From contig JACRIK010000027.1 of NCBI GenBank assembly GCA_016235865.1, positions 26,213 through 90,212 of the forward strand: a stretch of 64,000 nucleotides of DNA, given 5' to 3'. Shown one piece after another: positions 366 through 56,854 of this stretch (position 1 is its first letter; each line of letters starts with the position of its first letter). Under the pieces are notes generated by a model that was given only the letters and a program-made list of their open reading frames with translations, made no database searches and was not told the DNA's origin. Both the position numbers and the translations under genes were made by a program. Source of the stretch: Planctomycetota bacterium. GTDB lineage: Bacteria > Planctomycetota > MHYJ01 > JACQXL01.

Positions 366-398
366 GTATACCCGGTCTGGCTTTTGGGATAATATTAT

Positions 399-18478: not shown

Positions 18479-19054
18479 TCAGGCGCTGAATTTCTTCCCG
18501 GCCTCAAAGGCATCCTTGAGCGCGGTCGGGTGTTCTCTTATGGCGCCCTTGATATCGACCTTATTATATACCAATTCGCCCGAATAGTCTACATTAATTG
18601 CCTTAAAGAAATATTTGATGGTCAGGATGGTGCCGGTAAAGAGATGCTCGCCCTTGGTGCCGCCGGTGGAGATGAAGAAGCCCTTTCTTGTGATTTGAGA
18701 TTTGGGATTCGTGATTTTAAGTATGTATTTGCGGGCCCAGAGGGCCTGGCAGCGGTCGATGATTATCTTTACCTGGGCCGGGACGTTGTAGAAGAATATT
18801 GGCGCGGCCAGGATTACCGCATCAGCTTTCAGTAATTGTTCGTAAAGGGTATTCATCTCATCCTGAATGGCGCAGTTACCGGTCTTGAGGCAGGTATTGT
18901 ATTCCTGGCAGGGGGTAATCTTGAGGTCGCGGATGAATATCTTTTGTATCTGAATTTTCGGGGCGGCAGACAGGGCGCCCTTGAGGAATTCGTCCAGCAG
19001 GATATCAGTGTTACCACCCTGGCGCGGACTTCCATAAAGGGCTAAGAGGAGCAT
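18479..19054 (-). CDS. Flavodoxin-like fold NAD(P)H-dependent FMN reductase/iron-sulfur flavoprotein-like protein (about 191 aa from the internal start MLLLALYGSPR; the ORF itself extends to 19111)
   Basis: YGSPRQGGNT and DAVILAAPIFFYNVP motifs of the NADPH-dependent FMN reductase family. Confidence 0.65.
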   Translation of the reverse strand: MLLLALYGSPRQGGNTDILLDEFLKGALSAAPKIQIQKIFIRDLKITPCQEYNTCLKTGNCAIQDEMNTLYEQLLKADAVILAAPIFFYNVPAQVKIIIDRCQALWARKYILKITNPKSQITRKGFFISTGGTKGEHLFTGTILTIKYFFKAINVDYSGELVYNKVDIKGAIREHPTALKDAFEAGKKFSA

Positions 19055-33495: not shown

Positions 33496-33680
33496 GTGTT
33501 TAAGGCCGCCGCTTTTTAGAGCCAGTTAGACCTATGGTCGTTACTGGCTCTTATCCCGATTACTCATCGGGGCAACCACTCAGCAACCTCTCCGTAAGAA
33601 AATTAGCCACAGAGTCGCAGAGTTCACAGAGAGTAATTAACTCCGTGTTCTCCGTGCCTCTGTGGCTATTTATTAGTATA

Positions 33681-34306: not shown

Positions 34307-34461
34307 ACGGCATATTCTCTACCAGAATCAGCCGAAGAAGGCAAGAAAAACCACAGATTACACAGATGGGCACAGATTTTCCAAAATATAATCCGTGTAA
34401 TCTGCGAAATCTGTGGTTGCTTTTCCTTGCATTTATTCCGGTTCTGTGGTATAATTATTCT

Positions 34462-36054
34462 ATGCCAACAAAGACCATCGGTGAATTCGAATTATACGAA
34501 GACCGGTTAATCGGCAAAGGCGCCTGGGGCGAGGTCTATCACGGGAGACAGAAATCCCTGGACCGGCCGGTGGCTATTAAAATCCTGAAATCCGACCTGA
34601 CCCAGGACGCGGAATTCGTCAGCCGGTTCAAGCGCGAGGCGGAAATCCTGGCCAAAATCACCGACGACCACATCATCCACGTCTATTCAGCCGGCCAGCA
34701 CGAAGGCGCGTATTATTTCATAATGGAATATGTGGAGGGCAAACCCCTGAGCAGTTTCGTTGACAGCGGCTATAAATTCTCGACCGACGAAATAATCTAC
34801 GTGGCCCAGTCCGTGGCCCAGGCGCTCAATGCGGCCTGGGAATCAGCCGCTAAAATCATCCACCGCGACATCAAACCGTCCAATATCATGGTGGCTCATT
34901 CTGCCTCCGTGGTTAAATCCGCCGGAGACGGCGCTATCAGTATCCTGGCCGGCAAAATTAAGGTTATGGACTTCGGGCTGGCCAAGTTATCAGCCGGCGG
35001 CAAAGACGCCACCATTGCCGGCACCATCATCGGTACGCCCAAATACATCTCGCCTGAACAGGGCATGGGCAAGACCGCGGACATCCGTTCGGACATATAT
35101 TCACTCGGCATCGTGCTGTATGAAATGGCCACGGGCCGGATTCCGTTCGAGGGCGAAACAGCCGTTAGCATGATTCGCCACCATATCTATGACACGGTGG
35201 CGGTTCCGTCCCAGTTTAATAAGGATATTCCCAAGGAGCTGGAAGACATCATAATGAAGTGCGTGCACAAGGACCCGGACAGCCGCTATGCCACTCCGGC
35301 CCAGATGCTGGAGGACCTGAACGGCTTCAAGCAGAAGAGCGGGCTGATTCACGCCAAGAATGCCACCCTGGATGCGACCATTGTTTCAGGCGCCGTGCGC
35401 CGGAAACAGACCGCGCGCAATCTGGCTTATGCCACGATTGCCCTGGTCCTTTTCCTGGCCGGCGGATTTATCTTCTATAAGAATCAGACGTCTGCTGGCC
35501 CAATCGCCAAAAACGACCAAACTGAGTTAACTGGCAAAATCGGCGCACCGGGAGGCACTGGCGTAATAGTAGATAGTCCAACAGACCAGACAGTCCCGGC
35601 AGTTGACGAGAAATTCGCCATCAAGGTCTGGGTGAATGACGGCAAGGCCGCGACCTACAAGCAAGGCGACGACCTGAAATTCCATTTCCGGGCCAACAAG
35701 GACTGCTCTATCTATCTCTATCATCGCGATGGTGCGGGAACCGTCAAGATGCTCTTCCCCAATCCTTACAGCAGTGACAACAAAATCAAAGGAGGTCAGG
35801 TCTACACCATACCGGACAGCAAGATGAACTTTGGGATTACGGTCACGCCGCCCTTTGGCACGGAGACGGTCTGGGCCGTGGCCAGTTTACAGCCCATGAC
35901 CGAGATGGACATCCAGGCCGGCGAAAAGGATTTCCGGGACCTGGGCAAATTAGCCAGTTTAGGCGAAAGCGAACTGGTCACCCGGTCGCTGGAACTGGTG
36001 CCCAAACAAGCCCGGGCCGAGGACACCTGCACCATCAGCACGACGGAGAAATAA
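34462..36054 (+). CDS. Hanks-type Ser/Thr protein kinase with one TM helix and an extracytoplasmic C-terminal beta-rich (DUF4384-like) domain, about 530 aa from the start MPTKTIGEF
   Basis: GKGAWGEVY, VAIK, HRDIKPSN, DFGLAK and GTPKYISPE kinase subdomains. TM helix LAYATIALVLFLAGGFIFY. The C-terminal domain assignment is from memory. Confidence 0.85.
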   Translation: MPTKTIGEFELYEDRLIGKGAWGEVYHGRQKSLDRPVAIKILKSDLTQDAEFVSRFKREAEILAKITDDHIIHVYSAGQHEGAYYFIMEYVEGKPLSSFVDSGYKFSTDEIIYVAQSVAQALNAAWESAAKIIHRDIKPSNIMVAHSASVVKSAGDGAISILAGKIKVMDFGLAKLSAGGKDATIAGTIIGTPKYISPEQGMGKTADIRSDIYSLGIVLYEMATGRIPFEGETAVSMIRHHIYDTVAVPSQFNKDIPKELEDIIMKCVHKDPDSRYATPAQMLEDLNGFKQKSGLIHAKNATLDATIVSGAVRRKQTARNLAYATIALVLFLAGGFIFYKNQTSAGPIAKNDQTELTGKIGAPGGTGVIVDSPTDQTVPAVDEKFAIKVWVNDGKAATYKQGDDLKFHFRANKDCSIYLYHRDGAGTVKMLFPNPYSSDNKIKGGQVYTIPDSKMNFGITVTPPFGTETVWAVASLQPMTEMDIQAGEKDFRDLGKLASLGESELVTRSLELVPKQARAEDTCTISTTEK

Positions 36055-36151
36055 AATTATCGCCTACACCTCAACTATCTATGGCTATCTGATGGGTAGT
36101 GATGCATTATAACATTTTTTGACGCTCCCCCGTCTTATATGAACAGGTAGC

Positions 36152-36410
36152 GCTTATCATACCAAGAAACGGCGCCTACGATACCAAGCAGTATGGTATA
36201 TAACTATCAGAACTGGGGTTTAGTTTACCAAGAAATAGGGCTTACCATACCAAGAAGAGGCGCTTTATTTACCAAAAAGATGGGCTTATCATACCAAGAA
36301 CAGGGGCTTTAGCTATCAAGCAGTATGGTATATAACTATCAGAACCGGGGCTTAAGTTACTAAGAAATATGGCTTATTATACCAAGAGTTAGGGCCTATA
36401 ATATCAATAA
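36152..36410. repeat. Tandem repeat array with 22-bp base period (units like ataccaagaaNNgggcNtta) organised as two roughly 132-bp higher-order copies. A G/C-run tract lies at 36411-36450
   Basis: gcttatcataccaagaa recurs at 36152 and 36284 (132 = 6 x 22). The array is followed by gggcggggggttagtctaatgggggtggggcacctcccccc. Confidence 0.8.
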
Positions 36411-36539
36411 GGGCGGGGGGTTAGTCTAATGGGGGTGGGGCACCTCCCCCCTGCCAAAGTAAGTGGTTGATTTATATGGGGATGGGGAAACGGAAATAGC
36501 CGAAAATAGATATTTTGAATGGTTTCTTAAGAGGAAAAG

Positions 36540-36578
36540 GGCGCCCCGATGTTGCATCGGGACGCCCCGCTAAAGGTG
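36540..36578 (-). terminator. Rho-independent terminator candidate for the aminotransferase gene (hairpin ggggcgtcccgatgcaacatcggggcgccc, then a U-rich tract on the minus strand)
   Basis: GC-rich inverted repeat immediately 3' of stop 36582, followed by ttttcctctt on the coding strand. Confidence 0.5.
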
Positions 36579-36581
36579 TTT

Positions 36582-37652
36582 CTACATGGTTTTGAGTATC
36601 TTGTCCATGGCATCGAGCAGGCCCTTGAGTTCCTCGGCGTTGCAGTCGCCCATATGGGCAATCCTGAATGTGCTGTCCTTGAGCTTGCCGTAGCCGGCTG
36701 ATATCATATAGCCGACCTTGCCTAATTCCTCATTGAGTTTCTTGATGTCTATCTTTTTGGTGTTGTCCGCCGTGGTCATGGTGATTGATTCATAGCCCGG
36801 CTCGGTGAAGAGCTTGAATCCGTTGTCGGTCACCCACTTGCGGCACATCTTGGCCAGTTCTTTCAGGCGCTCGAACCTTTTTTCCAGTCCCTCTTTGAGC
36901 ATCTGGTCCAGCTGGTAATTGAGCGCGAAGATGTGCGAGACCGAGGGCGTGGTCGGGGTCTGGTTCTTGGCGTCAAAGGCGTCGAATTCCACAAAGTCAA
37001 AGTAATAGCCGCGGTTCGGGACGGTCTTGGCGCGCTCCAAAGCCCGTCCGCTGACCGAACAGATGGCAAAGCCCGGCGGCAGGGCAAAGCCCTTTTGGGT
37101 GCTGGCCAGGCACACGTCAATGCCCCAGGCATCCACTTCTATCTTGGCGCCGGCCATTGAACTGACTGCATCCACCATAAACAGCACGTTTGGATACTTC
37201 TTGACTACGTCCGAGATTTCCTTCAAGGGGTTCATCACGCCGACCGAGGTTTCGTTGTGGGTGACAAAGACCGTGTCATACTTGCCGGTGGCTAATTCCT
37301 TATCAACCATGGCCGGTTTTATGGACTGGCCCAGCGGGACCTCAAACTTGTCGGCCGGTTTGCCGTTGGCGACCGATATGCCGAACCATCTCTCGCCGAA
37401 TTCACCGCAGACGAAGTGAGCGGCGCGTTTGCTGATGCAGTTGCGCACGCAGGCCTCCATCAGTCCGGTGCCGGACGAGGTGCTCAGGTATATCTTGTTC
37501 TTGGTGTAGAGCAGTTGCTGGAGTTTTCCCTTTACCGCGCCGTGCAGGTCGGTATAGTCCTTGGTCCGATGTCCGATCATCGGCGTGGCCATGGCGTTTA
37601 ACACGCCCGGATAGACCTCGACCGGGCCCGGGATAAACAGTTTCTTGTGCAT
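36582..37652 (-). CDS. Class V PLP-dependent aminotransferase (serine-pyruvate/alanine-glyoxylate/phosphoserine aminotransferase-like), about 356 aa from the start MHKKLFIPGP
   Basis: N-terminal IPGPVEV motif. Conserved neighbourhood with a serA-like gene and a DUF1015 gene. Confidence 0.8.
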   Translation of the reverse strand: MHKKLFIPGPVEVYPGVLNAMATPMIGHRTKDYTDLHGAVKGKLQQLLYTKNKIYLSTSSGTGLMEACVRNCISKRAAHFVCGEFGERWFGISVANGKPADKFEVPLGQSIKPAMVDKELATGKYDTVFVTHNETSVGVMNPLKEISDVVKKYPNVLFMVDAVSSMAGAKIEVDAWGIDVCLASTQKGFALPPGFAICSVSGRALERAKTVPNRGYYFDFVEFDAFDAKNQTPTTPSVSHIFALNYQLDQMLKEGLEKRFERLKELAKMCRKWVTDNGFKLFTEPGYESITMTTADNTKKIDIKKLNEELGKVGYMISAGYGKLKDSTFRIAHMGDCNAEELKGLLDAMDKILKTM

Positions 37653-37666
37653 AGCACTCTCTCTTT

Positions 37667-39175
37667 CTATCTGAATGAAGCCGAGCAAATGGCGCAACCC
37701 TTACGGGCCTTCTTGCCCTTTGCGCTGCCCTTGGTTTCGTTTTCGTGCAGGTAGTTTATCTTACTGATGACGATACCGCTCAGGAGTTTGGGATAGAAAT
37801 CAGTTGATTTCTGGGGCATCCGTTCGCCCTTGAGCGAGACGTTCTTGACCTCGGCAATCCTGGTCGGATTGAGGATGAAGGCCATCTGGTACTTGCCTTT
37901 TGTTACGCTGTCAATGGCCTCGTCTTCGGAGCGGATGTAGTTGACGTTTTCCTCGTTGGCCACCTGTTCCTTGTTGATGCCCAGCATTTTCTCAAGTATC
38001 AGGGAGTGGAGAATGGTCACGTCCAGCCGTTTCCAGGTGGACGACTGTTTTTCGGTGATGACCTTATCCATTATCTTGTCGTTCTTCAGGGTGAGCACGA
38101 AGTATTTCTTGACGCCCTTGACAATCAGTCCGAAGGCATGGGCCCGCTCCCCGGTCATCCTGAGGTCCTCGGAGAATTCCTGGCGGCTGGCCTTTTCCTC
38201 TTTGGAGGTGTGGGTTGGATACTCGTTAATCCAGAAATACTGCTTGAGCTTGGCCAGCAGGTTATTGAAGGAGAAGTCCTTCCCCGATTTGGTCGGGACT
38301 CCGCTGTCGCTGCGAAGCCCGAAGATGAGCCGGTGGGTGGGCAGGATGGTCAGGCCTTTGTCGTCCATATTGACAAAGGTCATCATCCGGTTCTCGAATG
38401 ACTCGTTGCCGATGCATTTCAGGCCCAGGGCGCGCATCTCGTTGCGGTAATTAAGCGCGGTTTCGTAGCGGTGATGGCCGTCCGCGATGAAGACGGCCTT
38501 CTTTTTCATGGTGTTCTGGACAACCTTGATTATCCTGGGATCGGTGACCTTCCAGAGCTTGTGAATCACGCCGTCGTCGTCTTTGAGCTTGATATCAGCC
38601 GGCCGGTAGTTGGTAACCCGGGCCAGGGCCTGATTGATGACCAGTTTCGGGTCCGAGTAGAGCATGAAGATTTGTCCGGTCGAGCCGCCCACCGCGCGCA
38701 TGGTGCTTAAGCGGTCCTGCTTGGGCTTGAGGAGCGTGCGTTCGTGCGGATGGACGCCGCCCTGGCCGAATTCCACCAGCCGCATCAGTCCGATAAAGCC
38801 CTTGCGGATTTCCGGCGCGTGAGCGCCATAAGGGCGCCATGGCGCTTCGGCGCCACAGGCGGACTTGTTCTTGATGGGTGAATGGAATTCTTCGTGATAG
38901 GCATAGATGGCCCGCTTGTTGTCTTGGACCAGGATATTCTTCTTCAGCCAGGCATTGAGATAATCAGCCGCCCGGGTGTATTTGTTGTTGCTGTCGTTGT
39001 CGCCCTTGAGGTCCTTGCCCTTGGTGATGCGCACCAGGTTGTAGGGGTTCCGTTTGTAATACATGGCCTGCATCTCGGGCGTGATTTTGTCATACGGCTG
39101 GGTCAGGACCAGCCCGTAATCCTTGATTTTGGACTTGTTATAGGTGATGCCGTAAAAAGGCAGGATATCGGTCAT
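37667..39175 (-). CDS. DUF1015-like conserved hypothetical protein, 502 aa, with a Lys/Cys-rich C-terminal tail
   Basis: N-terminal LPFYGITY-type start and the known serA-serC-DUF1015 gene neighbourhood. The family call is from memory. Confidence 0.55.
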   Translation of the reverse strand: MTDILPFYGITYNKSKIKDYGLVLTQPYDKITPEMQAMYYKRNPYNLVRITKGKDLKGDNDSNNKYTRAADYLNAWLKKNILVQDNKRAIYAYHEEFHSPIKNKSACGAEAPWRPYGAHAPEIRKGFIGLMRLVEFGQGGVHPHERTLLKPKQDRLSTMRAVGGSTGQIFMLYSDPKLVINQALARVTNYRPADIKLKDDDGVIHKLWKVTDPRIIKVVQNTMKKKAVFIADGHHRYETALNYRNEMRALGLKCIGNESFENRMMTFVNMDDKGLTILPTHRLIFGLRSDSGVPTKSGKDFSFNNLLAKLKQYFWINEYPTHTSKEEKASRQEFSEDLRMTGERAHAFGLIVKGVKKYFVLTLKNDKIMDKVITEKQSSTWKRLDVTILHSLILEKMLGINKEQVANEENVNYIRSEDEAIDSVTKGKYQMAFILNPTRIAEVKNVSLKGERMPQKSTDFYPKLLSGIVISKINYLHENETKGSAKGKKARKGCAICSASFR

Positions 39176-39209: not shown

Positions 39210-39245
39210 GGGCGGCTTATGGACTCTTATGTCCCCCGATGTTAT
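39210..39245 (-). terminator. Hairpin cccccgatataacatcggggg downstream of the STAS gene, related in sequence to the hairpin at 36540-36578
   Basis: Shared core ccccgatgtt(r)(y)atcgggg in both hairpins. There is no clear U-tract, so terminator function is uncertain. Confidence 0.35.
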
Positions 39246-39262
39246 ATCGGGGGGCTGTCATA

Positions 39263-40623: not shown

Positions 40624-43600
40624 TTACGGTATCAATTCATTAAACCGCTTATCCCGGCGCAGGTTTTCCAGGTCCGGGTCTTTTTTGGCCCAGTCCAGGC
40701 CGGTCATCCCGAATTCGATGGCCTTTTTCAGGGCCATAAATGCCTCGTCAATGTTGTTATTGCGGGACAGGGCGCAGGCGTAATTATACCACAGCCCGGA
40801 GATGTTCGGGAAACAGGCCACCGCCTTCTGGTAATACTCAACCGCCTGGGCATAGTTACCGCCTTCCAGGGCTTCCAGGCCTTTCTGGATGTATTCCAGC
40901 CCGGCTAAATCAGTCTCTTGGAATTTTACCTGGCTTTGGAGCGACTCTAGGGTAGTGATATCTGACTTTCCGCCCAGCAGGGCAGTGAAACTATCCGCTA
41001 AAATACTGTTGATGGCCAGGTTATAACCCTCTTTCCAGAGAATAACCGCGCCGGCCTTGTTTATCAGGAGCACCGAGGGCATAAGCTCCTTTTTCTTGGT
41101 GGCCACATCCGGGATAAACTGTTTGGCCGCGGCCATATCCTTATCCAGCAACATCGGTAGTGACACGCCGTTTAAACGCTCGTCATTTTCGCCCTTTTCG
41201 TCAACCAGCACGGTCCAGATTTCCACGCCGGCTGATTTGGCCTGGTTAATCGTGGACTGAATCAGCGGCAGCATCCTCAGGGACGGCTCGGATTCCAGGG
41301 TGAAGAATACCAGGAGTATATTATTATTCTTGAGCGCTGATTGTAAGTTATGCGTTTGCCCGGCCTTATCCGTCAGGGTGAAATCCGGCCGGGTCTTGAG
41401 TTCCCGTACCACCCGTTCACCGCTGCTGAGCATATCCATCGGCAAATCCAGCGGTACAGTTACCTCAATGCCTTTTTCCGAGGCGATGGTAATCGGCCGG
41501 GCGTAGATAAGCACATCGCCGTTGGCGTTGCGGTTGGCGGCGGTTAGGAGATATTCGCCCGGCGCCGCGGTCAGCCAGCCGTTGCTGACGTTGAGCTCCT
41601 CTTCCAGGAAATCCCAGCCGCCGTCGCTGAACCTGGAAATGCCGCAATTCATCTCGCTGGTCTGGTATTCAAATCCGTTCTTGGTGGTGATGATTCTTAC
41701 CCCGCCTTTCTTGACGTATTGCTTTTTGGTATCCTCGTTCAATTCCGTCTTGCCCAGATTCTTGCTGTCCATGGGATAAAGCGGCAGCCAGTTGGCGCCG
41801 TCGTAAAACTCCACCCAGTCGGACTTGATATTAGCCGGGATGCCCACAGACCGCAATGCGGCGATGGTGGACATAACCGGCCCGCCCTTGAGCGCGCGCC
41901 GGCTCTTAAAGACATCGGCCGGATTGGGCGAACAGAAAAACCGGCCGCTGGCTGAGTCCGCTATCTTGATGTTCTGTTCAATCCACTGGTTGATTCTTAA
42001 GGCCGCCTCGGTAATGGTCAGAGGTTTTTTACCTTGGTAAACCACGGGCATGAGCAGGTCATAAAGATCTTTGCGCCATTGATAAATATGCATGTAGGGC
42101 ATCCGGGGCGACAGGACATAGGAATGATAAATATCGTCGGTTACCTTTACCGGCATCTGGCTCCGGGCTAATTGGGCGTACTTGACGTGCTCCAGCAGGA
42201 TGGTCTTGTTGGTTTCGATGCTGTCCACCAGGTTCATCTGGGCCACCAGCCAGAACAGGTCTTCTTTCTGTTCCTTGGAGGCTTCATTCATAGCCGCAAC
42301 GATTTCCGTCCAGTTGCCGCCCGAGCGCTTCAGCACGCTGATGATATTGCCGGACAGCGGGCTGGACATGATTAGTTCGTTGACATCTGGGTGTTCCTCT
42401 ATTTTGAACTCCGCGCAATAATAGGCCTCCGGCGGCGCTATCGGGCAATGGTCGGAATTAATTTTCTTATATTTGGCCGGGACTTCCGGGTCAGGCCCGG
42501 CATTGGCCGCGGCCGGATTAAACGCCACATACGCCGCATGGGTGTCCGGGAAGCGCAGGGTATAATAACCGGACGGGCCACTCTTGTTTGATAACGTCAT
42601 GGTGACGGGCAGGGTGCCTGAAATAGTGGAGATAATCTGCCAGTCCAGCTGTCCGGTATTCCCGGCGCTGAGCATATACTGTCCGACGCCGGTGGTAATC
42701 GAGGCCTTGCCCTGGGCATCGGTCTTCTGCAGGGCGACCTTACGGAATACCGCCCAGTTTACCACGGACAGTGTCACCGGCGTGCCGGAAGCCGGCTGGC
42801 CGTCGGCCGCCAGAACGGTGACATCCAATTTGCAGGTCAGCGAATAATTGGACAGGACGTTCAGAATGGAGTCCTTTTTACTGGCCCGGTAGATTGTGGA
42901 CTTGTCCTCGGGCTGTCCGAACCGGGCGCAGTAAATCGCCGCGCCGGTAGCTGAGAATTCCGTGAACCAGGCCCGGCCGGCTGTGGCGGCCATGGCTGAT
43001 TGGATGGATGGTTCGCAGCTGCCCATGGAAAACCATTTATCGCCGGCCCAGATCTCGGTCCAGGCGTGGTTGTTGTCGCATTTGGGCCAGTAAGGCGTAT
43101 AGACGCTCCGAGACGGGATGCCGACCGCTCGGGTAGCGGCCATAAAGATAATCATCATCTCCTCGCAGCGTCCCTGGCTGGATAGAAGCGTGGCAAAGGG
43201 CGATTTGTCCCTGGCCTCGCTCGGCTCAAAATGGACCCGTTGCTTGGCGTATCCGGCCTGGGTGTCTTTGCGCTCGCCGCCCAGCCAGAGATTGACCTGA
43301 TAAGCCGCCTCTAACATCGTCTCGCAGTCCTTAACCAGCGGGTCTAACTGGTCGTAGAAATATTTGCGATGCGCGGTAATCGGTTCTTCAGCCATCCGGT
43401 AGGGCAGGACATAGGCCAAAAAAGTGTCCTCGGGCATATCCTTCATCCAATGGTATTTGTGTTTTATCAGATATGCGTAATGGATGTGCTCCAGCAGATA
43501 ATCGGCCTTGATGGAAATCAGGTCCGGGAAGGGCATGGTGCTGATGAGGAACGCCGCGCCTTCCAACTCCTCGCCTTTGAGCGTGGTCAAAACCTTGAGC

Positions 43601-43776
43601 AGTTCCGGGGCGTTCTCGCCGGCTTCATTCAATGCCGATTGGACATTGGCAACGTATTTGGCAGGCGCATATTTGGAGATGTCCGCGTATGGTTTTGAAC
43701 CGGATGACTTGCAGGAGGATAACATGAAAACAACCAGAAGCGCGCCTAAAACCAGTTTGGTGTGTCTGATAACCAT
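40624..43776 (-). CDS. Large lipoprotein (1050 aa) with a transglutaminase-like cysteine-protease core domain, a redoxin-like fold without CxxC, and C-terminal TPR repeats
   Basis: Lipobox LSSCKS, transglutaminase-core-like GRCEEMMIIFMAATRAVGIPSR, and C-terminal TPR (AVEYYQKAVACFPN). Confidence 0.65.
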   Translation of the reverse strand: MVIRHTKLVLGALLVVFMLSSCKSSGSKPYADISKYAPAKYVANVQSALNEAGENAPELLKVLTTLKGEELEGAAFLISTMPFPDLISIKADYLLEHIHYAYLIKHKYHWMKDMPEDTFLAYVLPYRMAEEPITAHRKYFYDQLDPLVKDCETMLEAAYQVNLWLGGERKDTQAGYAKQRVHFEPSEARDKSPFATLLSSQGRCEEMMIIFMAATRAVGIPSRSVYTPYWPKCDNNHAWTEIWAGDKWFSMGSCEPSIQSAMAATAGRAWFTEFSATGAAIYCARFGQPEDKSTIYRASKKDSILNVLSNYSLTCKLDVTVLAADGQPASGTPVTLSVVNWAVFRKVALQKTDAQGKASITTGVGQYMLSAGNTGQLDWQIISTISGTLPVTMTLSNKSGPSGYYTLRFPDTHAAYVAFNPAAANAGPDPEVPAKYKKINSDHCPIAPPEAYYCAEFKIEEHPDVNELIMSSPLSGNIISVLKRSGGNWTEIVAAMNEASKEQKEDLFWLVAQMNLVDSIETNKTILLEHVKYAQLARSQMPVKVTDDIYHSYVLSPRMPYMHIYQWRKDLYDLLMPVVYQGKKPLTITEAALRINQWIEQNIKIADSASGRFFCSPNPADVFKSRRALKGGPVMSTIAALRSVGIPANIKSDWVEFYDGANWLPLYPMDSKNLGKTELNEDTKKQYVKKGGVRIITTKNGFEYQTSEMNCGISRFSDGGWDFLEEELNVSNGWLTAAPGEYLLTAANRNANGDVLIYARPITIASEKGIEVTVPLDLPMDMLSSGERVVRELKTRPDFTLTDKAGQTHNLQSALKNNNILLVFFTLESEPSLRMLPLIQSTINQAKSAGVEIWTVLVDEKGENDERLNGVSLPMLLDKDMAAAKQFIPDVATKKKELMPSVLLINKAGAVILWKEGYNLAINSILADSFTALLGGKSDITTLESLQSQVKFQETDLAGLEYIQKGLEALEGGNYAQAVEYYQKAVACFPNISGLWYNYACALSRNNNIDEAFMALKKAIEFGMTGLDWAKKDPDLENLRRDKRFNELIP

Positions 43777-45085: not shown

Positions 45086-45136
45086 AGACAAGATTATCTC
45101 TACGCTATACGCTATACGCTCTACGCTATACGCTCT

Positions 45137-46365: not shown

Positions 46366-46579
46366 TTAGAATTACTTGTAGTGAGTGACCCACAGGGTCC
46401 CAGTGGGAAACGAATCTATCTGTTTAATCAGTGTAATCCAGTTGTTATCATTTAATTTCTGGGGCAGTATATTTATTATTCATTCGTGTTTATTTGTGTC
46501 TATTCGTGGTTGCTGTTTTCCTTGTTTATCTGTGGTTTCAAAATCTTGACTTGTGTGGCTGGAAAGGTTAATTAGTGTT

Positions 46580-47344: not shown

Positions 47345-47478
47345 AGTGGCTTCTTTCCTCCCGTTAACGCAAAACCTTGCCAAGGCGAAGCTAAATGATA
47401 GGCTTGTCATAGAGGCACATTCGCTTGGCTCAGTGTAAACTTAGCGAAGGAATAGGATTAAGCATAGGAGATTAAATT

Positions 47479-47715
47479 ATGAATAAAGAAAGAGCGCTGG
47501 CGGTTTTTGAAGATTATAAAATCCGCCGGATATATGATGAGGCGTCAGCCACCTGGTTCTTTTCATTGGTGTATATCATCGGGGCGCTGATTCAGCAGAC
47601 GGATTATAAATCGGACAGAAACTATTGGAAGGTCTTAAAGAATCGACTAAATAAAGAAGGCAGTGAGTCGGTTACAAAATGTAACCAACTGAAACTAGCC
47701 GACGCGATAAAGTAA
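47479..47715 (+). CDS. Small protein (78 aa) resembling the N-terminal Bro-N/KilA-N-like domain of DNA-damage-inducible protein D (DinD), apparently truncated
   Basis: FEDYKIRRIYDEASATWFF ... DYKSDRNYWKVLKNR is similar to E. coli DinD FEEIRHYGTEGQEFWSARELAPLLDYRDWRNFQKVLARA (from memory). Good Shine-Dalgarno sequence aggag. Confidence 0.4.
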   Translation: MNKERALAVFEDYKIRRIYDEASATWFFSLVYIIGALIQQTDYKSDRNYWKVLKNRLNKEGSESVTKCNQLKLADAIK

Positions 47716-47815
47716 AGTGTCATCGGAATTAACCTATCCCCTGCAACCTATTTTGGTCTGTTTTTGACGCTACCCTTTGATTTATCTGCACTTATCCCAA
47801 TTTCCGTTAAAAAAA

Positions 47816-47842
47816 GGTGGGGGAGGGGGTATGGTGGGGGGT
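47816..47842. repeat. G-run tract ggtgggggagggggtatggtgggggg (potential G-quadruplex-forming) directly upstream of the third 22-bp array
   Basis: Four G runs of 5-6 nt, read directly. Confidence 0.5.
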
Positions 47843-47851
47843 AGTACCCTT

Positions 47852-48137
47852 GGCGCTACGGAGGTACGTTATCGGCGCTATGGAGGCACGTCACCGGCCC
47901 TACAGAGGTGCATTCCAGGCGCTACAGAGGTGCATTCCAGGCACTACAAAGGTATATTCCAAGCATTACGAAGGTATATTCCAAGCGCTACAAAGGTATT
48001 CTCCAGGCATTACGAAGGTATGCTTCCGGCGCTACGAAGGTATGCTTCTGGCGTTACAGAGGTATGCTCCAGGCGCTACAGAGGTATGCTTCCGGCGCTA
48101 CGGAGGCACGTCACCGGCGCTATCATCGGTGTATGCT
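47852..48137. repeat. Tandem array of about 13 copies of a 22-bp unit (ggcgctacagaggtatgcttcc and variants) immediately upstream of the Type III mod gene
   Basis: Exact 22-nt period across 47852-48137. The three overlapping ORF-track entries 47777..48151, 47817..48218 and 47908..48186 are reading-frame artefacts of the repeat. Confidence 0.9.
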
Positions 48138-48223
48138 CACCATACGGATAGGAGGGCAAAAAACAAAGTATTTATTGCTTTTTTAATGAAGGCGGGTATG
48201 ATTATTACAAAGGAGTAATATTT

Positions 48224-49810
48224 ATGCCATCACTAAATTTTAAGGGTAAGAATGCAGTTTGGAATCATCATTTGTCCGTTCCATACCAGATACTGGAAAA
48301 GGATAAGAAGCTGTCACTCAAAGGCAAGAATGAGGATGAGAACCTGATTATAGAGGCGGATAATCTGGTCGCGCTAAAAAGCTTGTTACCGAAATATCAG
48401 GGCCGGATAAAGTGTATTTACATAGACCCGCCATATAATACCGGCAATGAAAATTGGGTTTATAGCGATAATGTCAGCAGTCCGTTAATAAAAGAATGGC
48501 TAAAAAAAGGGCCTGTTGGTTCTGAGGATTTAACCCGTCACGACAAATGGCTTTGTATGATGACGCCTCGCCTTAAACTTCTTCGTGAATTGATGAGTGA
48601 GGATGGTGTCATATTTGTTAGTATTAACGACATTGAGAGTTCTCATGTGCGTATGCTAATGGATGATATATTTAATGGTAATTTTATTGGTATGTTAATA
48701 TGGAGGAAAAAAGAGGGTGGAGGACAGACTGACGATTACTTTGTAACGGAACATGAGTATGTTCTTGCGTATGCTAAATCGCCAGATTTTAAATGGGTTG
48801 ATGAAACAATTCCGATAGATGAGGCAAAATTCAAGAAAGAAGATAATGACGGAAGATTTACTGCGGTTAAACTTGCTAAATGGGGTTCTGGAGCACGGAA
48901 AGAAGATCGGCCAACGATGCATTTTGCAATAAAATCTCCCGACGGTAAAAATGTGTATCCAAAAGCACCAGATGGGAGTGCTGGAAGGTGGCGCGTTGGG
49001 AAATTAACAATGGATAATCTTCTGGAAAATGGATTAGTCTACTGGGAGGAAAAAAATGGCGATTGGGTGGCCTACGAGAAAATCTATTATGACGAAGAAG
49101 ACGTTAAGACAATTAAAGAACGGAGCATACTATACGAATTAGCTTCTACTGGTGATGCCACGAAGGCGCTAACTGAGTTATTTGGGAAAAAGGATATATT
49201 TGAAAATCCTAAGCCAGTTGAACTTACTAAATTCTTAATGCGATATACCACTGATAAATCTTCAATTATTCTTGATTCCTTTGCTGGTTCGGGAACAACA
49301 GCCCAGGCGGTTTTAGAGTTAAATAAAGAAGATGGTAAGGAGGGGAATAGGAAAGTCATTTTAATTCAACTGCCAGAAGAAATTAGGAAAGATAAGCCAG
49401 CATATAAGGCTGGGTATAGATATGTTCACGAGATTACAAGAGAGCGCGTTAAACGAGTGATTGAAAGAGATAAATTGGGTGTTGGCTTTTCATACATGAA
49501 TCTTGGATCACAGATTGATGCGGATTCTATCTTATCAGGCAAGTTGCCAACCTATAAAGAGTTTGCCAAGTATGTTTATTATCTGGCAACCGGAAAGACA
49601 GGCAACGAGTCAATTTACCTTATATATGAAAAGGACAAGGACAAACTAAAGAAGCTGGCAATTACGCTTGAATGGGCAGAGCAGACAAACAAGAAAGACA
49701 AGGGCAAGAAGATTATCTATGCCCCGGCCTGTTTCATAGATGAAGAATACCTGGAGAAGTTTAATATCCATTTTGTGAGTATTCCTTATAATCTCTTTGA
49801 AAAGAAATAG
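48224..49810 (+). CDS. mod: Type III restriction-modification system methyltransferase (Mod), N6-adenine, beta-class, 528 aa
   Basis: Motif IV DPPYNTGN N-terminal to motif I DSFAGSGTT. Strong Shine-Dalgarno sequence aaggag. Followed 3 nt later by the res gene. Confidence 0.85.
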   Translation: MPSLNFKGKNAVWNHHLSVPYQILEKDKKLSLKGKNEDENLIIEADNLVALKSLLPKYQGRIKCIYIDPPYNTGNENWVYSDNVSSPLIKEWLKKGPVGSEDLTRHDKWLCMMTPRLKLLRELMSEDGVIFVSINDIESSHVRMLMDDIFNGNFIGMLIWRKKEGGGQTDDYFVTEHEYVLAYAKSPDFKWVDETIPIDEAKFKKEDNDGRFTAVKLAKWGSGARKEDRPTMHFAIKSPDGKNVYPKAPDGSAGRWRVGKLTMDNLLENGLVYWEEKNGDWVAYEKIYYDEEDVKTIKERSILYELASTGDATKALTELFGKKDIFENPKPVELTKFLMRYTTDKSSIILDSFAGSGTTAQAVLELNKEDGKEGNRKVILIQLPEEIRKDKPAYKAGYRYVHEITRERVKRVIERDKLGVGFSYMNLGSQIDADSILSGKLPTYKEFAKYVYYLATGKTGNESIYLIYEKDKDKLKKLAITLEWAEQTNKKDKGKKIIYAPACFIDEEYLEKFNIHFVSIPYNLFEKK

Positions 49811-49812
49811 AT

Positions 49813-52299
49813 ATGATTCTAAAGGATTATCAGATAGAGGTCATCGATAAACTAAAAGAGTTCTATACCGAGGCGGAAAAACAAAAGAGCGAGGTAGAGA
49901 AGTCAAATGATAAGGTTTTAAGAGAATCTGTTTCTTATGTTGATACTGTTTATACTAAGCTTGACCTGCATTTTGCCGACCGGCCTAAGAACGGCTTAGG
50001 ACAATCATATACCCGTTTTTGCCTGAAGATTCCGACCGGCGGGGGCAAGACCCTATTGGCAATTGAGGCCATCCGGGAATACCAAAACCTATTCGCCAAG
50101 AAAAGAACCGGGTTAGTGGTTTGGATAGCGCACCGCGAGACCATCTACCGCCAGACCATAGAGAAACTCAGGGATAAAAATCATATCTACCGCCAGTGGC
50201 TGGACCAATGCAGCGGCAACCGGACCATTATTCTGGAAAAAGGACAGCCGTTACGGATGCAGGACACGGACAGCAATCTGGTGATTCTGATGCTGATGAT
50301 TCAGTCGGCCGGAAAGAAAACCAAGGAAAATATGAAGGTCTTTCAGGACAGCGGCAAATATATTGACTTCTTCCCGCCGGATAACCAATACGAGGAGCAT
50401 GAAAAACTATTAAGGAGGGTCCCTAATCTTGATCCTACCCCTGGTGATGTATTCGGCAAGAGAATAATAAAGACCAGTTTAGGCAACATAATCAGGATGG
50501 AGAATCCGCTTATGATTGTGGATGAATTCCATACGATGTTTTCGGATATTGCCAAAAGCACGTTGGACGGCTTAAACCCATCAATGATAATCGGACTGTC
50601 GGCTACGCCCAAAAAACGGGAGGGCATGAATATTTTTATAGAAATTACGGGCAAGGCGCTTAAGGACGAGGAGATGATTAAATTAGATATGCACCTGCAT
50701 TCGCCGACTACCAGCGGAGATTGGCATGAAATGATTAACAGCGTCAGAAAGAAAAGGGAGACGTTGGAAAAGACAGCGACTGACTTTAACCGTAATAAGG
50801 GGATATATATCAGGCCGATAGCATTGATACAGGTAGAGCGAACGGGTAAAGACCAGAGGGGAAAAGAATTTGTGCACAGCGAGGATGTGCGCGAATATCT
50901 GGTTGCGCAAGGAGTTCCGGCTCATCAAATCGCGGTAAAATCAAGCGAAATGGATGAGATTAAAGAGGAAAAACTCTTATCGCAGACAAGCGAAATCAGA
51001 TACATCATTACCAAAGAGGCGTTAAAAGAGGGCTGGGATTGTTCATTTGCCTATGTTTTAGGGGTGATACCCAATGCCAGGTCTGAATCCTCAATGACCC
51101 AGTTGGTCGGCCGGATATTACGCCAGCCGTATGCCAAGAAGACCGGGGTGGCGGAATTGGATGAAAGTTATGTCTATTTTAACCAGGGCGATACGGAAGA
51201 TGTCCTGCATAACATCCAGCGCGGATTTGTAGAGGAGGGTTTGGGCGATTTGGTCCAGAATATCAGCCGGGAATCAGGCCCGACCGGCTCGGACAAGATA
51301 AAAACAAAGATTAAGAAAGATATTCTCAATAAATATCCTGAGTCGTTATATCTGCCGGTCTGGCTGGTTAAGGAAGATAACAAATACCGGCGGTTCTCTT
51401 ATGATATTGATATCAGGCCCAGGATTAACTGGCAAAACGGGCATTACGATAAATGGCTGGAAAAAGAAATCCTGCCTTTGCTTAGCGCGAAATCATCCGC
51501 TTATGAATATATAGTTGATTTGGACAATCGGCATGAAAGGCGGGATTTGGATGAGATGGATGAGGGCGTTTTTGATATTTCATACCTAACCCGCCGGATA
51601 TCCGATGTGGTTGATAATGCCTTTATTGCCTTTGACCTGGCTCAGGAATTTATCTCGGCCGGCGATAAATACAAAGACAGGCAAAAACTGCTAATCAACA
51701 GTGGATTCATTATCAAGGAAATCGTCAAGAAGTTGTCAGATGAAAAAATCCAGCAAGAGCAATTAATATTTGATTCATTACTGAAAGGCAAGGAATTAAT
51801 GCTGGCGGTCAGCGATGACGAGCAGGTCGGGTATTCGTTGCCGAAAAATAATGAGGTCTATCCGGAATATGCCGAGACATATAAACTGAATCTTTTTGAG
51901 AAGTCGGATATAAAATCAATGAATTCGCTGGAGCGGAGAATTGCCGGTTCTATTGATAATAAGAAAAATGTAATCTGGTGGGCGCGGAATATAGCCAGCA
52001 GCAGGAAATGGTATGCCATAAGAGGTTGGAAGAGAGGCAAAATCAGGCCTGATTTTATCGTGGCCAGGAAGAATAAAAGCGATGCGTTGGAACTCGTTTA
52101 TATCATTGAGAGCAAGGGCGAACATTTAATTGGCAATCCGGATACGATTTATAAAAAGAGCGTATTTGATAAGATGAATCAGGAAACCATTGAACAGGTA
52201 ACCCTGAAACTAATCAAGTTTAAGCTGAATAAGGACTTTAGGTTTGAACTGGTTGAGCAGGGACAGGAAGATATTGAGATAAACAGATTCTTTAATTAA
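49813..52299 (+). CDS. res: Type III restriction enzyme Res subunit (SF2 helicase domain plus C-terminal PD-(D/E)xK nuclease), 828 aa
   Basis: Motif I KIPTGGGKT, motif II MIVDEFH, helicase C-domain, and C-terminal RPDF ... ELVYIIESKGEH endonuclease motif. Confidence 0.85.
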   Translation: MILKDYQIEVIDKLKEFYTEAEKQKSEVEKSNDKVLRESVSYVDTVYTKLDLHFADRPKNGLGQSYTRFCLKIPTGGGKTLLAIEAIREYQNLFAKKRTGLVVWIAHRETIYRQTIEKLRDKNHIYRQWLDQCSGNRTIILEKGQPLRMQDTDSNLVILMLMIQSAGKKTKENMKVFQDSGKYIDFFPPDNQYEEHEKLLRRVPNLDPTPGDVFGKRIIKTSLGNIIRMENPLMIVDEFHTMFSDIAKSTLDGLNPSMIIGLSATPKKREGMNIFIEITGKALKDEEMIKLDMHLHSPTTSGDWHEMINSVRKKRETLEKTATDFNRNKGIYIRPIALIQVERTGKDQRGKEFVHSEDVREYLVAQGVPAHQIAVKSSEMDEIKEEKLLSQTSEIRYIITKEALKEGWDCSFAYVLGVIPNARSESSMTQLVGRILRQPYAKKTGVAELDESYVYFNQGDTEDVLHNIQRGFVEEGLGDLVQNISRESGPTGSDKIKTKIKKDILNKYPESLYLPVWLVKEDNKYRRFSYDIDIRPRINWQNGHYDKWLEKEILPLLSAKSSAYEYIVDLDNRHERRDLDEMDEGVFDISYLTRRISDVVDNAFIAFDLAQEFISAGDKYKDRQKLLINSGFIIKEIVKKLSDEKIQQEQLIFDSLLKGKELMLAVSDDEQVGYSLPKNNEVYPEYAETYKLNLFEKSDIKSMNSLERRIAGSIDNKKNVIWWARNIASSRKWYAIRGWKRGKIRPDFIVARKNKSDALELVYIIESKGEHLIGNPDTIYKKSVFDKMNQETIEQVTLKLIKFKLNKDFRFELVEQGQEDIEINRFFN

Positions 52300-52335
52300 T
52301 AGGGGGAATACCCCTCCTTTCTCTAATGTAAAACT

Positions 52336-54183
52336 ATGTATTTCACAAAGCCCGTTTTAGCGGTAATCAAAAGAGTTATAAAAGACCTGAAAACCCGGAC
52401 AGAACTTGATAACTTATTTGAATCGTATGGCTTTGATCCTAAAAAAGATTGTGATGTTGGCAATAAATTAAATCTGGCTGGTTCATATTTAGACCATCAA
52501 GATTGGAGTGATGGAACAACGGCACATAATTTATTGGAGCTTTTGACCGAAGTTCTTCTGGGCGAGAAAGAGTCAGATACCTATCGCTGGCCCCAGGTGG
52601 AATTAATGCTTAACGCGCTAATTAAAGACAGCTATTACTGGATTAATAAGAATAAGAAATTTATCAGACAAGGTGAGCCATTTCCGCAACCCGCATTAAA
52701 TAAACCTGTTGAGCAAAAGCCTTCTGCGGAGAAGACGCCAGCTATTTTACCAGAAAATACCGGGGAGATAGCAGGAAAATACGTTAAAGAGATTCTTGAT
52801 AGGGAAAGAAATAATTTATTGTTTATAAGCAAATTCCTGGTTGATATAAAGCCCTTCTGGAATGACTGGCAATCATTTAAAGTAAAACTTCTTACAGTAC
52901 TTAACAATGAGAAAAAACGGATTATTATTAACGGGCAGGTTATCTTAGAGGTAAGTCCGATTGACTCTAAGGAAAAGCCCATTCTCCTTGAAATAGATAA
53001 TTTTTTCCAGGGCATTACTTTCCGCTATCCTTTTGCTGAATTAGAAGGATTCCTTAAAAACCTTATGACCGGCAAGGTGGTTGCTCAGGGAGAAGAATAT
53101 CATTTTGTGAACACCTCTCTTGGGCCATACGGTCCGGTTTGGGTGAACTACGCATATGATTACCCCGCACCAGTGAGCATGATAGAATCATTGAGCGGTA
53201 AAACAGCGTTTGCCATAGATTACAACGGAGATAAACTCTCAAACATTCTTGATAATACCAAAATTAAATGGCAGGACTTTTACCGGACTTGTCGGGGAAA
53301 AGGTTATAATGACCCATCTTACTTATTTAGATTATTCTTCGGATTAAGGGATGCTTATGTTACCAACGATTACCAGACCCAAATATGGATATATGCACCA
53401 ATTGATGTTTATATCAAGGAGTTTAAACCGCTTAAAAATAAATTGTCGGCCGTTATCTGGGCTGGCCCGTTAATAAAGCCGGATAATGTTGCATTGCGAT
53501 TTGTTCCCAGTAGGGAATCCCTTCCAGAACAAAGACCGGAATTTAAGCTGTCTGATTTTTCGCCACAAGGCAATTGTTTGTACCAGAAAGATATCCCAGC
53601 TGATTTTGATCAAACAGCTTTTATTGATTTAACCTATAAGGAAAAATTATTTTCAAAGGAACTTGAAATGCCGACATCTTCCGAAGATAAGCCCATTACT
53701 TTATCTATGGCAAAGAAATCAAAGATAGGCGCTAAAAATACTACAATTATTCATATGCCTAAAGGAACTAAGCCCAATGATATTACTTTTAGATTTAAAG
53801 ACCGCCGAACGATGGATGTTTTACTAAAAGATAATACCTTTAAGAGTAATGTATCATTTGATGAACTTGGATTTCAAAAGCAAAGCACCGGCAAAAAGAA
53901 GAAATCAGAACCAAGTATGCTATGGGAATTATTGGTAACGATGAGTGTAAATTATTCTAACCCGGGTTGGTCTTTTAAGGACAAGTCCACTAAAGGAAGG
54001 CAGCAGATAAGTTTACTTAGGGACAAACTTAAAACATTGCTAAATATAGAAGACGACCCCATTCCACTTAATTCTGAATTAAGAGGTTATCGCCCGGAAA
54101 TTCGTCTTGAGCCGCCACCAGATGAGCGACATCATTCCTATATAAATCCTGACGAAAAAGAGTCTGATTTGGAAGACGAGTAA
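52336..54183 (+). CDS. Hypothetical protein, 615 aa, no recognisable domain. Co-oriented immediately downstream of res within the AT-rich island
   Basis: Long ORF with AT-rich codon usage like mod and res. No Walker, nuclease or transmembrane motifs recognised by eye. Acidic, Lys-rich C-terminus. Confidence 0.6.
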   Translation: MYFTKPVLAVIKRVIKDLKTRTELDNLFESYGFDPKKDCDVGNKLNLAGSYLDHQDWSDGTTAHNLLELLTEVLLGEKESDTYRWPQVELMLNALIKDSYYWINKNKKFIRQGEPFPQPALNKPVEQKPSAEKTPAILPENTGEIAGKYVKEILDRERNNLLFISKFLVDIKPFWNDWQSFKVKLLTVLNNEKKRIIINGQVILEVSPIDSKEKPILLEIDNFFQGITFRYPFAELEGFLKNLMTGKVVAQGEEYHFVNTSLGPYGPVWVNYAYDYPAPVSMIESLSGKTAFAIDYNGDKLSNILDNTKIKWQDFYRTCRGKGYNDPSYLFRLFFGLRDAYVTNDYQTQIWIYAPIDVYIKEFKPLKNKLSAVIWAGPLIKPDNVALRFVPSRESLPEQRPEFKLSDFSPQGNCLYQKDIPADFDQTAFIDLTYKEKLFSKELEMPTSSEDKPITLSMAKKSKIGAKNTTIIHMPKGTKPNDITFRFKDRRTMDVLLKDNTFKSNVSFDELGFQKQSTGKKKKSEPSMLWELLVTMSVNYSNPGWSFKDKSTKGRQQISLLRDKLKTLLNIEDDPIPLNSELRGYRPEIRLEPPPDERHHSYINPDEKESDLEDE

Positions 54184-54487
54184 GACTGGTTGTGAAATCA
54201 ACCCTCTGGATTTCACATAATTCACAACAATTCCAATAATTCTTGAAAAATCTCGCTATCTAACATCTTTAAACTATTGAAGTTGTAGCAAGTAGTTTAA
54301 CCGCTAAAAGATTACCCCTTGTTTTTTGCCTATTTCACGGCCTAATTATAGAGGCACACGTTCGGGACGTCACCGGAAGCGGATGCGTGATGTCATCCAA
54401 TCCCGTCCGGACTTGTCTTCTATGAGTATCTGCTTGATGCCTGTTTGGCAGTTAGTCATATAAATAACAAAATAGGTGGGAACGACT

Positions 54488-54571
54488 ATGAAAAAGAGTT
54501 TTTGGAGGCGCATCATCAGGACGGTTATTGAAATCGTGCTTACGGTGATTCGTGACAAGATGAAGAAGTAA
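54488..54571 (+). CDS. Candidate small membrane-active peptide ORF (27 aa: MKKSFWRRIIRTVIEIVLTVIRDKMKK), type I toxin-like
   Basis: Shine-Dalgarno-like aggtggg 7 nt upstream of the ATG. Hydrophobic helix core flanked by basic residues. A 62-aa antisense ORF (54370..54558) overlaps it. Below the ORF-track length cutoff. Confidence 0.3.
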   Translation: MKKSFWRRIIRTVIEIVLTVIRDKMKK

Positions 54572-54677
54572 CTTCGCTTGTTTCCCGGTTTGGCGGGTTA
54601 TCCGGAAACGGATAGCCCCCGGCCGGGCTCCAAAAAGAAGGTGGCGCCAAAGGCGTCATTTAAGAAAGGATTAAATT

Positions 54678-55472: not shown

Positions 55473-55633
55473 GAAATGCGGAATGCGGGGTGCGGAATTA
55501 ACCGTGCCCCGCTTCCCTTTAATTAAAACAAAATACGAACACGAATGGGACGAATAGGAACGAATGGTACGAATGAATATTATTCGTGTGATTTATCTTA
55601 ATTCGTGTGATTCGTGTTAAAAGGAGTTGATTT

Positions 55634-56728: not shown

Positions 56729-56854
56729 GGGTTAGAGGTTAAGAATTGGGACGCAGATTTCGCTGATTTACGCAGATAAATCCTGATAATCTGTAAAATC
56801 TGCGTTTATCTGCGTTCTATTTCTCGGTCTCTGCGGAGTTTATCTGTGGTTACC
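56729..56854. terminator. Convergent-gene spacer composed of cgcagat/atctgcg and atctgtgg octamer units forming nested hairpins (acgcagataaatcctgataatctgtaaaatctgcgt). Candidate bidirectional terminator
   Basis: Inverted repeats read directly. Same unit family as 3137-3347. Confidence 0.4.

Follow-up and report, generated by a model that had tools for sequence, protein, structure and literature searches.

The 64-kb stretch of DNA analysed here (the window) belongs to an uncultured member of the Planctomycetota, class Brocadiia, whose nearest relative in the species collection is MAG219 (GCA_040753835.1; its DUF1015 protein has 81% amino-acid identity to that of the window). The genes scanned in the window are housekeeping genes (uvrB, ABC exporters, ribonucleotide reductase, murD, tadA, serA-like, lpxK, thiE/D, dapB, pyrG), the sole exception being a type III restriction-modification island. 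Two convergent genes, one for a Ser/Thr kinase with Pkinase and DUF4384 domains (34366-36054, plus strand) and one for a class-V aminotransferase (Aminotran_5; 36582-37697, minus strand), enclose between their stop codons a tandem array that we call A2. Read from position 36152 in a 22-bp register, it consists of 12 contiguous units without a single indel. An earlier note, made from the sequence alone, had described at this place a 22-bp period with a six-unit higher order, abutted by a G-run tract and situated between two 3' gene ends, and all of these points were borne out. The periodicity survives formal analysis, since Tandem Repeats Finder reports period 22 (36226-36320, score 81) as well as period 44 (36160-36387, score 146). 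The 132-bp order is not reported by the program. Base identity within the array is 0.53-0.61 at lags of 22, 44, 66, 88 and 110 and 0.72 at a lag of 132. The six-unit higher order is real, as 101 of 132 positions are identical between the two 132-bp halves of the array (76.5%). The G-run tract overlaps the last unit by 5 nt. The same note had held the units of A2 to be unlike those of two other arrays in the window, and comparison of their profiles in every rotation and on either strand agrees: the three unit sequences are mutually unrelated. The same organism has been assembled independently (Logan SRR12113407), and contig L001 of that assembly shows 100% identity over the A2 region. Protein coding was rejected, as no ORF of at least 60 aa is present and the longest one (39 aa) is not conserved. 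A2 is a genuine non-coding array, and its structural description is confirmed. The features are collected in Table 1.

Table 1. Coordinates of the three 22-bp arrays of the window and of the motifs next to them
Feature	Position	Strand	Description
Array A2	36152-36415	.	12 x exactly 22 bp, consensus approximately GCTTATCATACCAAGAAGNGGG, indel-free
A2 higher-order block 1	36152-36283	.	units 1-6; 101/132 positions identical to block 2
A2 higher-order block 2	36284-36415	.	units 7-12; 132 bp
A2 left flank motif	36115-36134	+	TTTTTTGACGCTCCCCCGTC; T-run and small GC hairpin, contains TTTTTGAC
A2 G-rich anchor	36411-36451	+	GGGCGGGGGGTTAGTCTAATGGGGGTGGGGCACCTCCCCCC; four G-runs, ending in a G-run/C-run foldback
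A2 right-flank block	36460-36481 (block 36467-36481 on +)	-	TTGATTTATATGGGG; conserved
Aminotransferase terminator hairpin	36538-36568	-	context, outside the A2 element
Array A1	400-663	.	12 x 22 bp, unit TTAGTTTTGAACTAACATAACC, ~89% homogeneous
A1 anchor	329-375	.	G7TAC4 foldback, then C-runs
Octamer beside A1	715-722	+	TTTTTGAC
Array A3	47852-48115	.	12 x 22 bp and a partial 13th, unit GGCGCTACAGAGGTATGCTTCC
A3 leader	47730-47815	+	TTTTTGAC at 47761-47768, then TTGATTTAT
A3 G-rich anchor	47816-47849	+	GGTGGGGGAGGGGGTATGGTGGGGGGTAGTACCC

The G-rich tract, which we call the anchor, contains a G-quadruplex-type (G4) motif at 36411-36440 and ends in the foldback GGGGGTGGGGCACCTCCCCCC (36431-36451). 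A homologous tract is present at the same place in the related contigs L282 and L286. On the other side of the array, the C-run of the left flank motif is complementary to the G-run at 36411-36420, and the minimum-free-energy fold of the region as RNA pairs this motif with 36411-36421. In the ortholog L286 the left flank motif has been kept, in the form TTTTTTGATACCCCCGG. The octamer contained in it, TTTTTGAC, has five matches in the 64-kb window, and three of the five lie beside the three arrays, each less than 100 bp away. To the right of the anchor, the conserved block overlaps a match to the IHF core consensus WATCAANNNNTTR (36460-36472, minus strand). The block is found also in L282 (~8075-8090) and L286 (~2641-2656), where an IHF consensus match can be seen by eye. 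The terminator hairpin farther to the right is of the type GGGCGCCCCGAT-N-ATCGGGxCGCCCC. Hairpins of this type follow unrelated genes (39233-39254 in the window, 3100-3130 in L285 and 12733-12765 in L002), as if they were a dispersed terminator cassette.

A lag-22 scan of the window finds no 22-bp arrays besides A2, A1 and A3. A1 and A3 each consist of twelve complete units and of a thirteenth that is degenerate or partial. No copies of the units of any of the three arrays occur elsewhere in the window, i.e. the units are private to each array. A1 is located upstream of the conserved uvrB promoter. The minus strand of its anchor reads as two 22-bp G-type units, and this anchor is 97% identical over 35 nt to that of the ortholog L289. 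The leader of A3 is homologous, by eye, to the leader before the uvrB-linked array of MAG219 (L290, ~110-200). Upstream of the latter leader, L290 carries an exceptionally long G-rich stretch of ~115 bp (1-115) with runs of the GGGGTGGGG type, reaching the contig end. A3 itself lies ~0.5 kb inside the left edge of a window-specific 9.5-kb insertion (47345-56855), which MAG219 lacks and which has dapB on one side and an ABC_tran_2 gene on the other. Besides A3, the insertion contains the mod and res genes of the type III restriction-modification system, three ORFs without a family match (615, 264 and 364 aa), one of which weakly matches PD-Lambda-5_A, and a 78-aa fragment that matches the PADLOC candidates PDC-S04/S13 over their first 74 residues. 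It is this truncated gene that A3 abuts.

An array of this kind could be transcribed into a multivalent sponge, or into a precursor that is cut into 22-nt units, with the GC foldback serving as a terminator or processing handle. The unit size does resemble that of small guide RNAs, a TTGAC-containing motif precedes both A2 and A3 on the plus strand, and a GC hairpin follows A2. We nevertheless regard a repeat-RNA gene as improbable. No sigma-70-type promoter was detected by a consensus scan, and the TTGAC motif was rejected as a promoter, since every copy is without a -10 box at 16-18 nt. At A1 the motif lies downstream of the array, which is itself upstream of the uvrB promoter. A known or structured RNA was also rejected: Rfam matches tRNAs only, and the folding energy of A2 is no better than that of shuffled sequences on either strand (z = +0.86 and +1.31). 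Moreover, a protein sponge would need a short motif common to all arrays, and none is present.

Profile comparison gave no common unit motif across the arrays, per-unit dyad symmetry is not in excess (combined p = 0.44), and a shared 11-bp A+T phasing, as in intrinsic curvature, was not supported (Fisher p ~0.10). Since motif, dyad symmetry and A+T phasing common to the arrays are all lacking, the arrays cannot all be bound by one sequence-specific protein, and a protein that reads their shape is unsupported. Within the single arrays, column conservation is over-dispersed, with some columns far better kept than others, which suggests that the units may have array-private cores.

Direct tandem repeats phased at 22 bp are the classic geometry of iterons, and the arrays could in principle stem from an integrated replicon, plasmid-like or phage-like, and serve it as origin of replication or as partition centromere. 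This explanation is very unlikely and already largely refuted. The window is a housekeeping chromosome without rep, par, integrase or phage genes. More specifically, a Pfam scan that covered window ORFs of at least 150 aa gave no transposase, integrase, Rep, Par, Cas or reverse transcriptase in the 64 kb. A plasmid or phage origin was rejected on blastn, which gave no match to plasmid or phage records, and captured phage sequence on the comparison of the three unit consensuses with IMG/VR, where they have neither an exact nor an IUPAC match. Three arrays with unrelated units in 64 kb would in addition need three cognate proteins, which argues against iterons and centromeres alike. Note that the G-motif GGGGGGTGGGGGTGGG, which occurs in two of the anchors, is found in at least 120 viral contigs, with no comparable adjoining array in the part of them that was scanned; it is far too common to serve as a search handle.

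The three arrays of the window are members of a larger set. Ten 22-bp arrays are present in ~170 kb of DNA of this lineage, all of them intergenic. Three belong to the window, and the other seven come from four related genomes of the class Brocadiia (Planctomycetota). The density is about one array per 15-20 kb, several of the loci having been selected because they are orthologous to known array loci. The numbers of units in the ten arrays are 12, 12, 12, 12, 12, 10-12, 12, 12, 11-12 and 11-13, and all ten are in strict register, each beside a G-rich tract or foldback. The units fall into eight unrelated families; the only related pairs are A1 with its ortholog in L289 and the two paralogs B1 and B2 of MAG219. 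In the window, the three ~264-bp arrays make up ~1-2% of the DNA. Because a lag-22 scan of ~3.2 Mb of other bacterial and viral DNA gave only two 22-bp arrays of any kind, neither with an adjoining G-rich tract, the abundance of arrays in this lineage is far above chance. The metagenome scan made with the aminotransferase had a best match of just 64% identity and for this reason contains no lineage relatives and counts as a negative control only. A metagenome contig of an unrelated bacterium (L229, ERZ795062 NODE-4029; aminotransferase 57% identical) has ~8 units of 22 bp, TTATAATGCAGACGAATCTGCC, at 281-693 directly upstream of the aminotransferase gene. These units contain a palindrome with 5-bp arms, and there is no G-rich anchor. 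Copy-number variation appears to be nearly absent among the ten arrays, and the independent assembly of A2 is identical. For A1, A3 and L286, which are homogeneous, the unit counts depend on the assembly of short reads; assembly is unambiguous for the six decayed arrays, and these have the same unit number. A dispersed family of non-coding DNA elements, defined by geometry and anchor and not by sequence, is established.

Orthologous loci reveal which parts of the element are kept. The gene order around the kinase in L282 (kinase 83% identical) is as in the window, and its array (7743-8006, 10-12 units) is built of two 110-bp five-unit blocks and two further units, followed by a G-rich foldback and the conserved TTGATTTATA block. 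L286 (kinase 76% identical) has twelve near-identical units, AGACCGGGAGAGGATACTACAT, ~93% homogeneous, framed by the same T-run/C-run motif and the same foldback as A2. The three arrays are orthologous, with flanks and anchor in common, and similarity between their units is undetectable. At the same site no array is present in L285 (kinase 83%) and L284. At the uvrB site, L289 (UvrB 86% identical) has an almost unchanged A1 anchor and twelve units that are diverged but recognisably related to A1, and L288 (92% identical) is without an array. The uvrB locus of MAG219 carries 11-12 units of another sequence behind its A3-like leader, and in GCA_043801445.1 11-13 units of GGGGGTATCTACTAGTAGTGGA lie downstream of uvrB, with a terminal foldback built from the G-run of the unit itself. 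The paralogous arrays B1 and B2 of MAG219 have 12 units each and align without gaps, at just 55% identity. In summary of these loci, period, register, copy number and anchor are shown to persist at orthologous places, and unit sequence is shown to be replaced between relatives. Where the anchor lies relative to the array and to TTTTTGAC, and on which strand, varies from locus to locus.

The units have been turned over within the arrays. At the kinase/aminotransferase locus the block structure is 6x2 in the window, 5x2+2 in L282 and homogeneous in L286, and therefore units were duplicated or converted since these genomes split. The total number of units returned to twelve, or stayed there, despite this block turnover. 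Even decayed arrays, whose units are only ~50% alike, are indel-free over 264 bp. Transitions outnumber transversions in the homogeneous, young arrays (20:3 in A1, 44:11 in A3, 11:4 in L286), old arrays are saturated, and the differences between B1 and B2 comprise all classes (67 transitions, 52 transversions). Directed hypermutation was rejected because the substitution spectrum is ordinary and without base-specific bias, and hypermutation of the diversity-generating retroelement type because all substitution classes are seen and no reverse transcriptase gene is present.

The arrays might be a purely neutral by-product, if replication forks stall at the G-rich hairpin and slipped-strand duplication then produces minisatellites without function. 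G4-type motifs or G/C foldbacks do abut most of the arrays, the transition-biased spectrum of the young arrays is the ordinary one, and higher-order blocks are typical of unequal exchange. However, a neutral origin leaves unexplained why eight unrelated unit families have the identical 22-bp period, why all ten arrays have ~11-13 copies and why old arrays are free of indels, and viral DNA with GGGGGGTGGGGGTGGG has no comparable array beside it in the scanned part. We consider it quite improbable.

The arrays coincide with places where these genomes differ in structure. The synteny that links the window with MAG219 breaks off exactly at A2. B2 lies inside a ~1.2-kb insertion relative to the window, adjoins a 5'-truncated HTH gene, and has no counterpart at the corresponding site of the window. 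The leaders of the arrays are mosaics of other small dispersed repeats. As a separate difference in gene content, the 1050-aa transglutaminase/Big_1/redoxin/TPR gene at 40624-43776 is missing from the regions of MAG219 (L002) and L282 that are otherwise syntenic.

Several small repeats of these genomes were recorded along the way. A second short intergenic tandem-repeat family has units of 9-10 bp (CACGAATGG, its complement ATTCGTG, and CAGATAAACG). It occurs in the window at 3271-3305, 13599-13624, 46482-46508, 55541-55575, 55582-55617 and 826-840, as well as at ~1130-1160 in L288 and ~430-540 in L291, and is common to all the related genomes. These repeats are often arranged as inverted pairs that would form long intergenic hairpins, and they are also part of the B1/B2 leader. 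Between the genes for tRNA-Arg and tRNA-Ser (33518-33593, minus strand) there is a 21-nt duplicate of the tRNA-Ser 5' end, GGAGAGGTTGCTGAGTGGTTG, followed by a CCCGAT..ATCGGG hairpin and then by a hairpin with a 9-bp stem, AGAGCCAGT..ACTGGCTCT. The last hairpin recurs at 94% identity in the B1/B2 leader of MAG219 and is found in L285 and L284, too. Finally, intergenic heptamers (TACGCTA, GGCAGTA, GAGCGTA, TTGTGAT, AATGCGG) are repeated 3-5 times at 45101-45134, 56260-56293, 4103-4126, 18688-18717 and 55475-55498 of the window.

The main rival of the explanation that we prefer is that the arrays are selfish mosaic intergenic repeats, similar to elements such as MITE, BIME or BOX. A recombinase or transposase acting in trans, possibly a RAYT-like enzyme of the HUH type, would then use the anchor hairpin and the flank motifs as its sites, and the satellite would be internal cargo without host function, its constant length being a requirement of mobilisation or a by-product of turnover. 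The B1/B2 pair fits this well: a 380-bp leader and the anchor are ~97% identical between the two copies, and the homology stops exactly at the array end. The same can be said of the insertion around B2 with its truncated HTH gene, of the leader of A3 having its homolog at a different locus of another genome, of the presence/absence polymorphism among relatives, of the mosaic leaders, and of the position of arrays at a synteny break and near an island edge, where A3 abuts the truncated PDC-S04/S13-like gene. CTAC/GTAG, the hallmark of REP sequences, is present in five of the eight unit-family consensuses (binomial p ~0.003). Against a selfish nature, no transposase, integrase or HUH gene is present in the 64-kb window or among the called genes of the related loci, and specifically no RAYT (Y1 HUH transposase) was seen in the window and the few loci of related genomes. 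No target-site duplication can be defined, and the units are private to each array of the window. Moreover, orthologous copies that have been resident since speciation keep 12 units in register despite turnover, which would not be expected from selection on a resident selfish copy. We consider selfish repeats possible, if on the unlikely side.

The explanation that we prefer, with a probability of roughly 40%, is that the arrays are dispersed DNA-level elements under selection for geometry, each a phased platform that is nucleated at the anchor and whose units evolve rapidly and in concert. The element would comprise the G-run/C-run foldback anchor, ~12 head-to-tail units of 22 bp and short conserved flank motifs. 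Duplication of blocks and gene conversion within the array would drive the turnover of units, probably promoted by the anchor as a replication-stalling G4 or hairpin. Stabilising selection would maintain the geometry, i.e. ~264 bp in 12 units of about two helical turns each, beside the anchor. A protein complex may nucleate at the anchor, helped in the A2 type by the putative IHF-like bend site, and then occupy or wrap the repeat tract. It would read spacing, number and a short array-private core rather than a common sequence. If this is true, the element acts as a structural or boundary element of the chromosome and not as a gene. Tandem arrays that duplicate in blocks should drift in length, and all ten arrays, resident orthologs included, have ~11-13 units; this speaks for stabilising selection or a count-preserving mechanism. 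Long residence at the same loci across genomes whose flanking proteins share 76-86% amino-acid identity likewise argues for maintenance. The enrichment of TTTTTGAC next to the arrays and the conserved IHF consensus match next to the A2-type anchor speak for a platform as well. The lack of a motif, dyad symmetry or A+T phasing common to the arrays and the varying position and strand of the anchor speak against it, and so do the array absences (in L285, in L288 and at the B2 site of the window). Mobile or selfish DNA would account equally well for these absences and for the finding of arrays at synteny breaks and insertions.

A count-preserving mechanism may also be an active one. A dedicated enzyme of the ruler type would begin at the anchor and write, or copy anew, an arbitrary 22-nt template exactly twelve times. 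Rolling-circle or reverse-transcriptase synthesis primed at the anchor might achieve this, as might a repeat duplicator of the integrase type. Such a writer is improbable in our estimate. If it did exist, the lineage would carry a previously unknown system of sequence recording or self-marking, similar in kind to CRISPR before the function of the latter was understood.

In the common view, bacteria can afford little non-coding satellite DNA in their genomes, and repeat families have so far been defined by shared sequence. Here, the family is defined by period, register, copy number and G-rich anchor, and the repeated sequence may vary freely. Should 12 x 22 bp prove constant throughout the genome, a component of the cell measures DNA length or unit number independently of sequence; candidates for this are an enzyme that writes repeats, a boundary element and a nucleoprotein structure. 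The arrays also mark rearrangement points of these genomes and offer a handle on chromosome organisation in an uncultured lineage of Planctomycetota.

No description of such arrays was found in the literature searched, and the repeat family is apparently undescribed, as a variant of known dispersed bacterial repeats. Non-coding satellite families are on record from prokaryotes, for example the 46-nt families of Leptospira interrogans and those of Methanocella conradii (Subirana and Messeguer 2019, PMC6749651), and Beggiatoaceae have intergenic TAACTGA direct repeats (PMC4679880). Those repeats, which are rare cases, resemble ours in being abundant, lineage-restricted, intergenic and tandem, and spread over the genome, but they are defined by a shared repeat sequence and not by 22 bp x 12 and a G-rich anchor. 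The array density of the window (~47 per Mb) is above the highest species value (21.9 per Mb) among the table values considered from the first paper (PMC6749651). Compared with VNTRs, the head-to-tail tandem arrangement is the same and the variable copy number is missing: there are ~11-13 copies in all ten arrays, and the independent assembly is identical. Sites of G4-associated recombination, such as the pilE G4 of Neisseria and G-rich minisatellites of humans, among them CEB1, likewise have a G4-capable tract beside one that converts or rearranges; in our arrays, however, nothing coding is varied and the tract length is constant. CRISPR is similar in its regularly phased array, its conserved leader-like flank, the possible involvement of IHF and its recognition from sequence first. 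CRISPR repeats of 23-55 bp are separated by unique spacers of about the same length and lie near cas genes, whereas here contiguous 22-bp units have no spacers, the 64 kb contain no cas genes and the repeats differ between arrays.

BIME and REP elements of enterobacteria (including the IHF-binding RIB/RIP and the BIME-2 clusters) share more with the arrays. They are high-copy, intergenic and lineage-specific mosaics whose short modules are grouped around GC-rich hairpins, in some cases together with an IHF site, and are found between convergent genes and at rearrangement points. Dispersed, intergenic and high-copy are the arrays as well; a single palindromic consensus is what they do not have. 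REP units are imperfect palindromes of alternating orientation with one genome-wide sequence and a variable number per cluster, whereas the units described here are direct, mostly non-palindromic and array-private, and number ~12. In the BOX elements of Streptococcus pneumoniae (boxA-(boxB)n-boxC), which are dispersed and non-coding too, conserved ends enclose a tandem internal module. The 45-bp boxB has the same sequence in every copy and is present 0-8 times; our arrays have conserved end modules, but their internal sequence changes by locus and their period and count are fixed.

Iterons and centromeres, finally, are built of direct repeats phased at about two helical turns and serve as platforms for cooperative protein binding, which makes them the closest analogue for the mode of action that we propose. 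There are seven 22-bp iterons in the R6K gamma origin and twelve repeats of 43 bp in sopC, the centromere of the F plasmid; R1 parC belongs to the same class, and several iteron origins are flanked by IHF sites. The two-turn phasing is found here as well. In contrast to these systems, the arrays are chromosomal, there are many per genome, no cognate rep or par gene is adjacent, and the units are not conserved between orthologs. By analogy, then, the arrays most resemble iteron and centromere platforms in their proposed mode of action, and the BIME, REP and BOX mosaics in their genomic behaviour.
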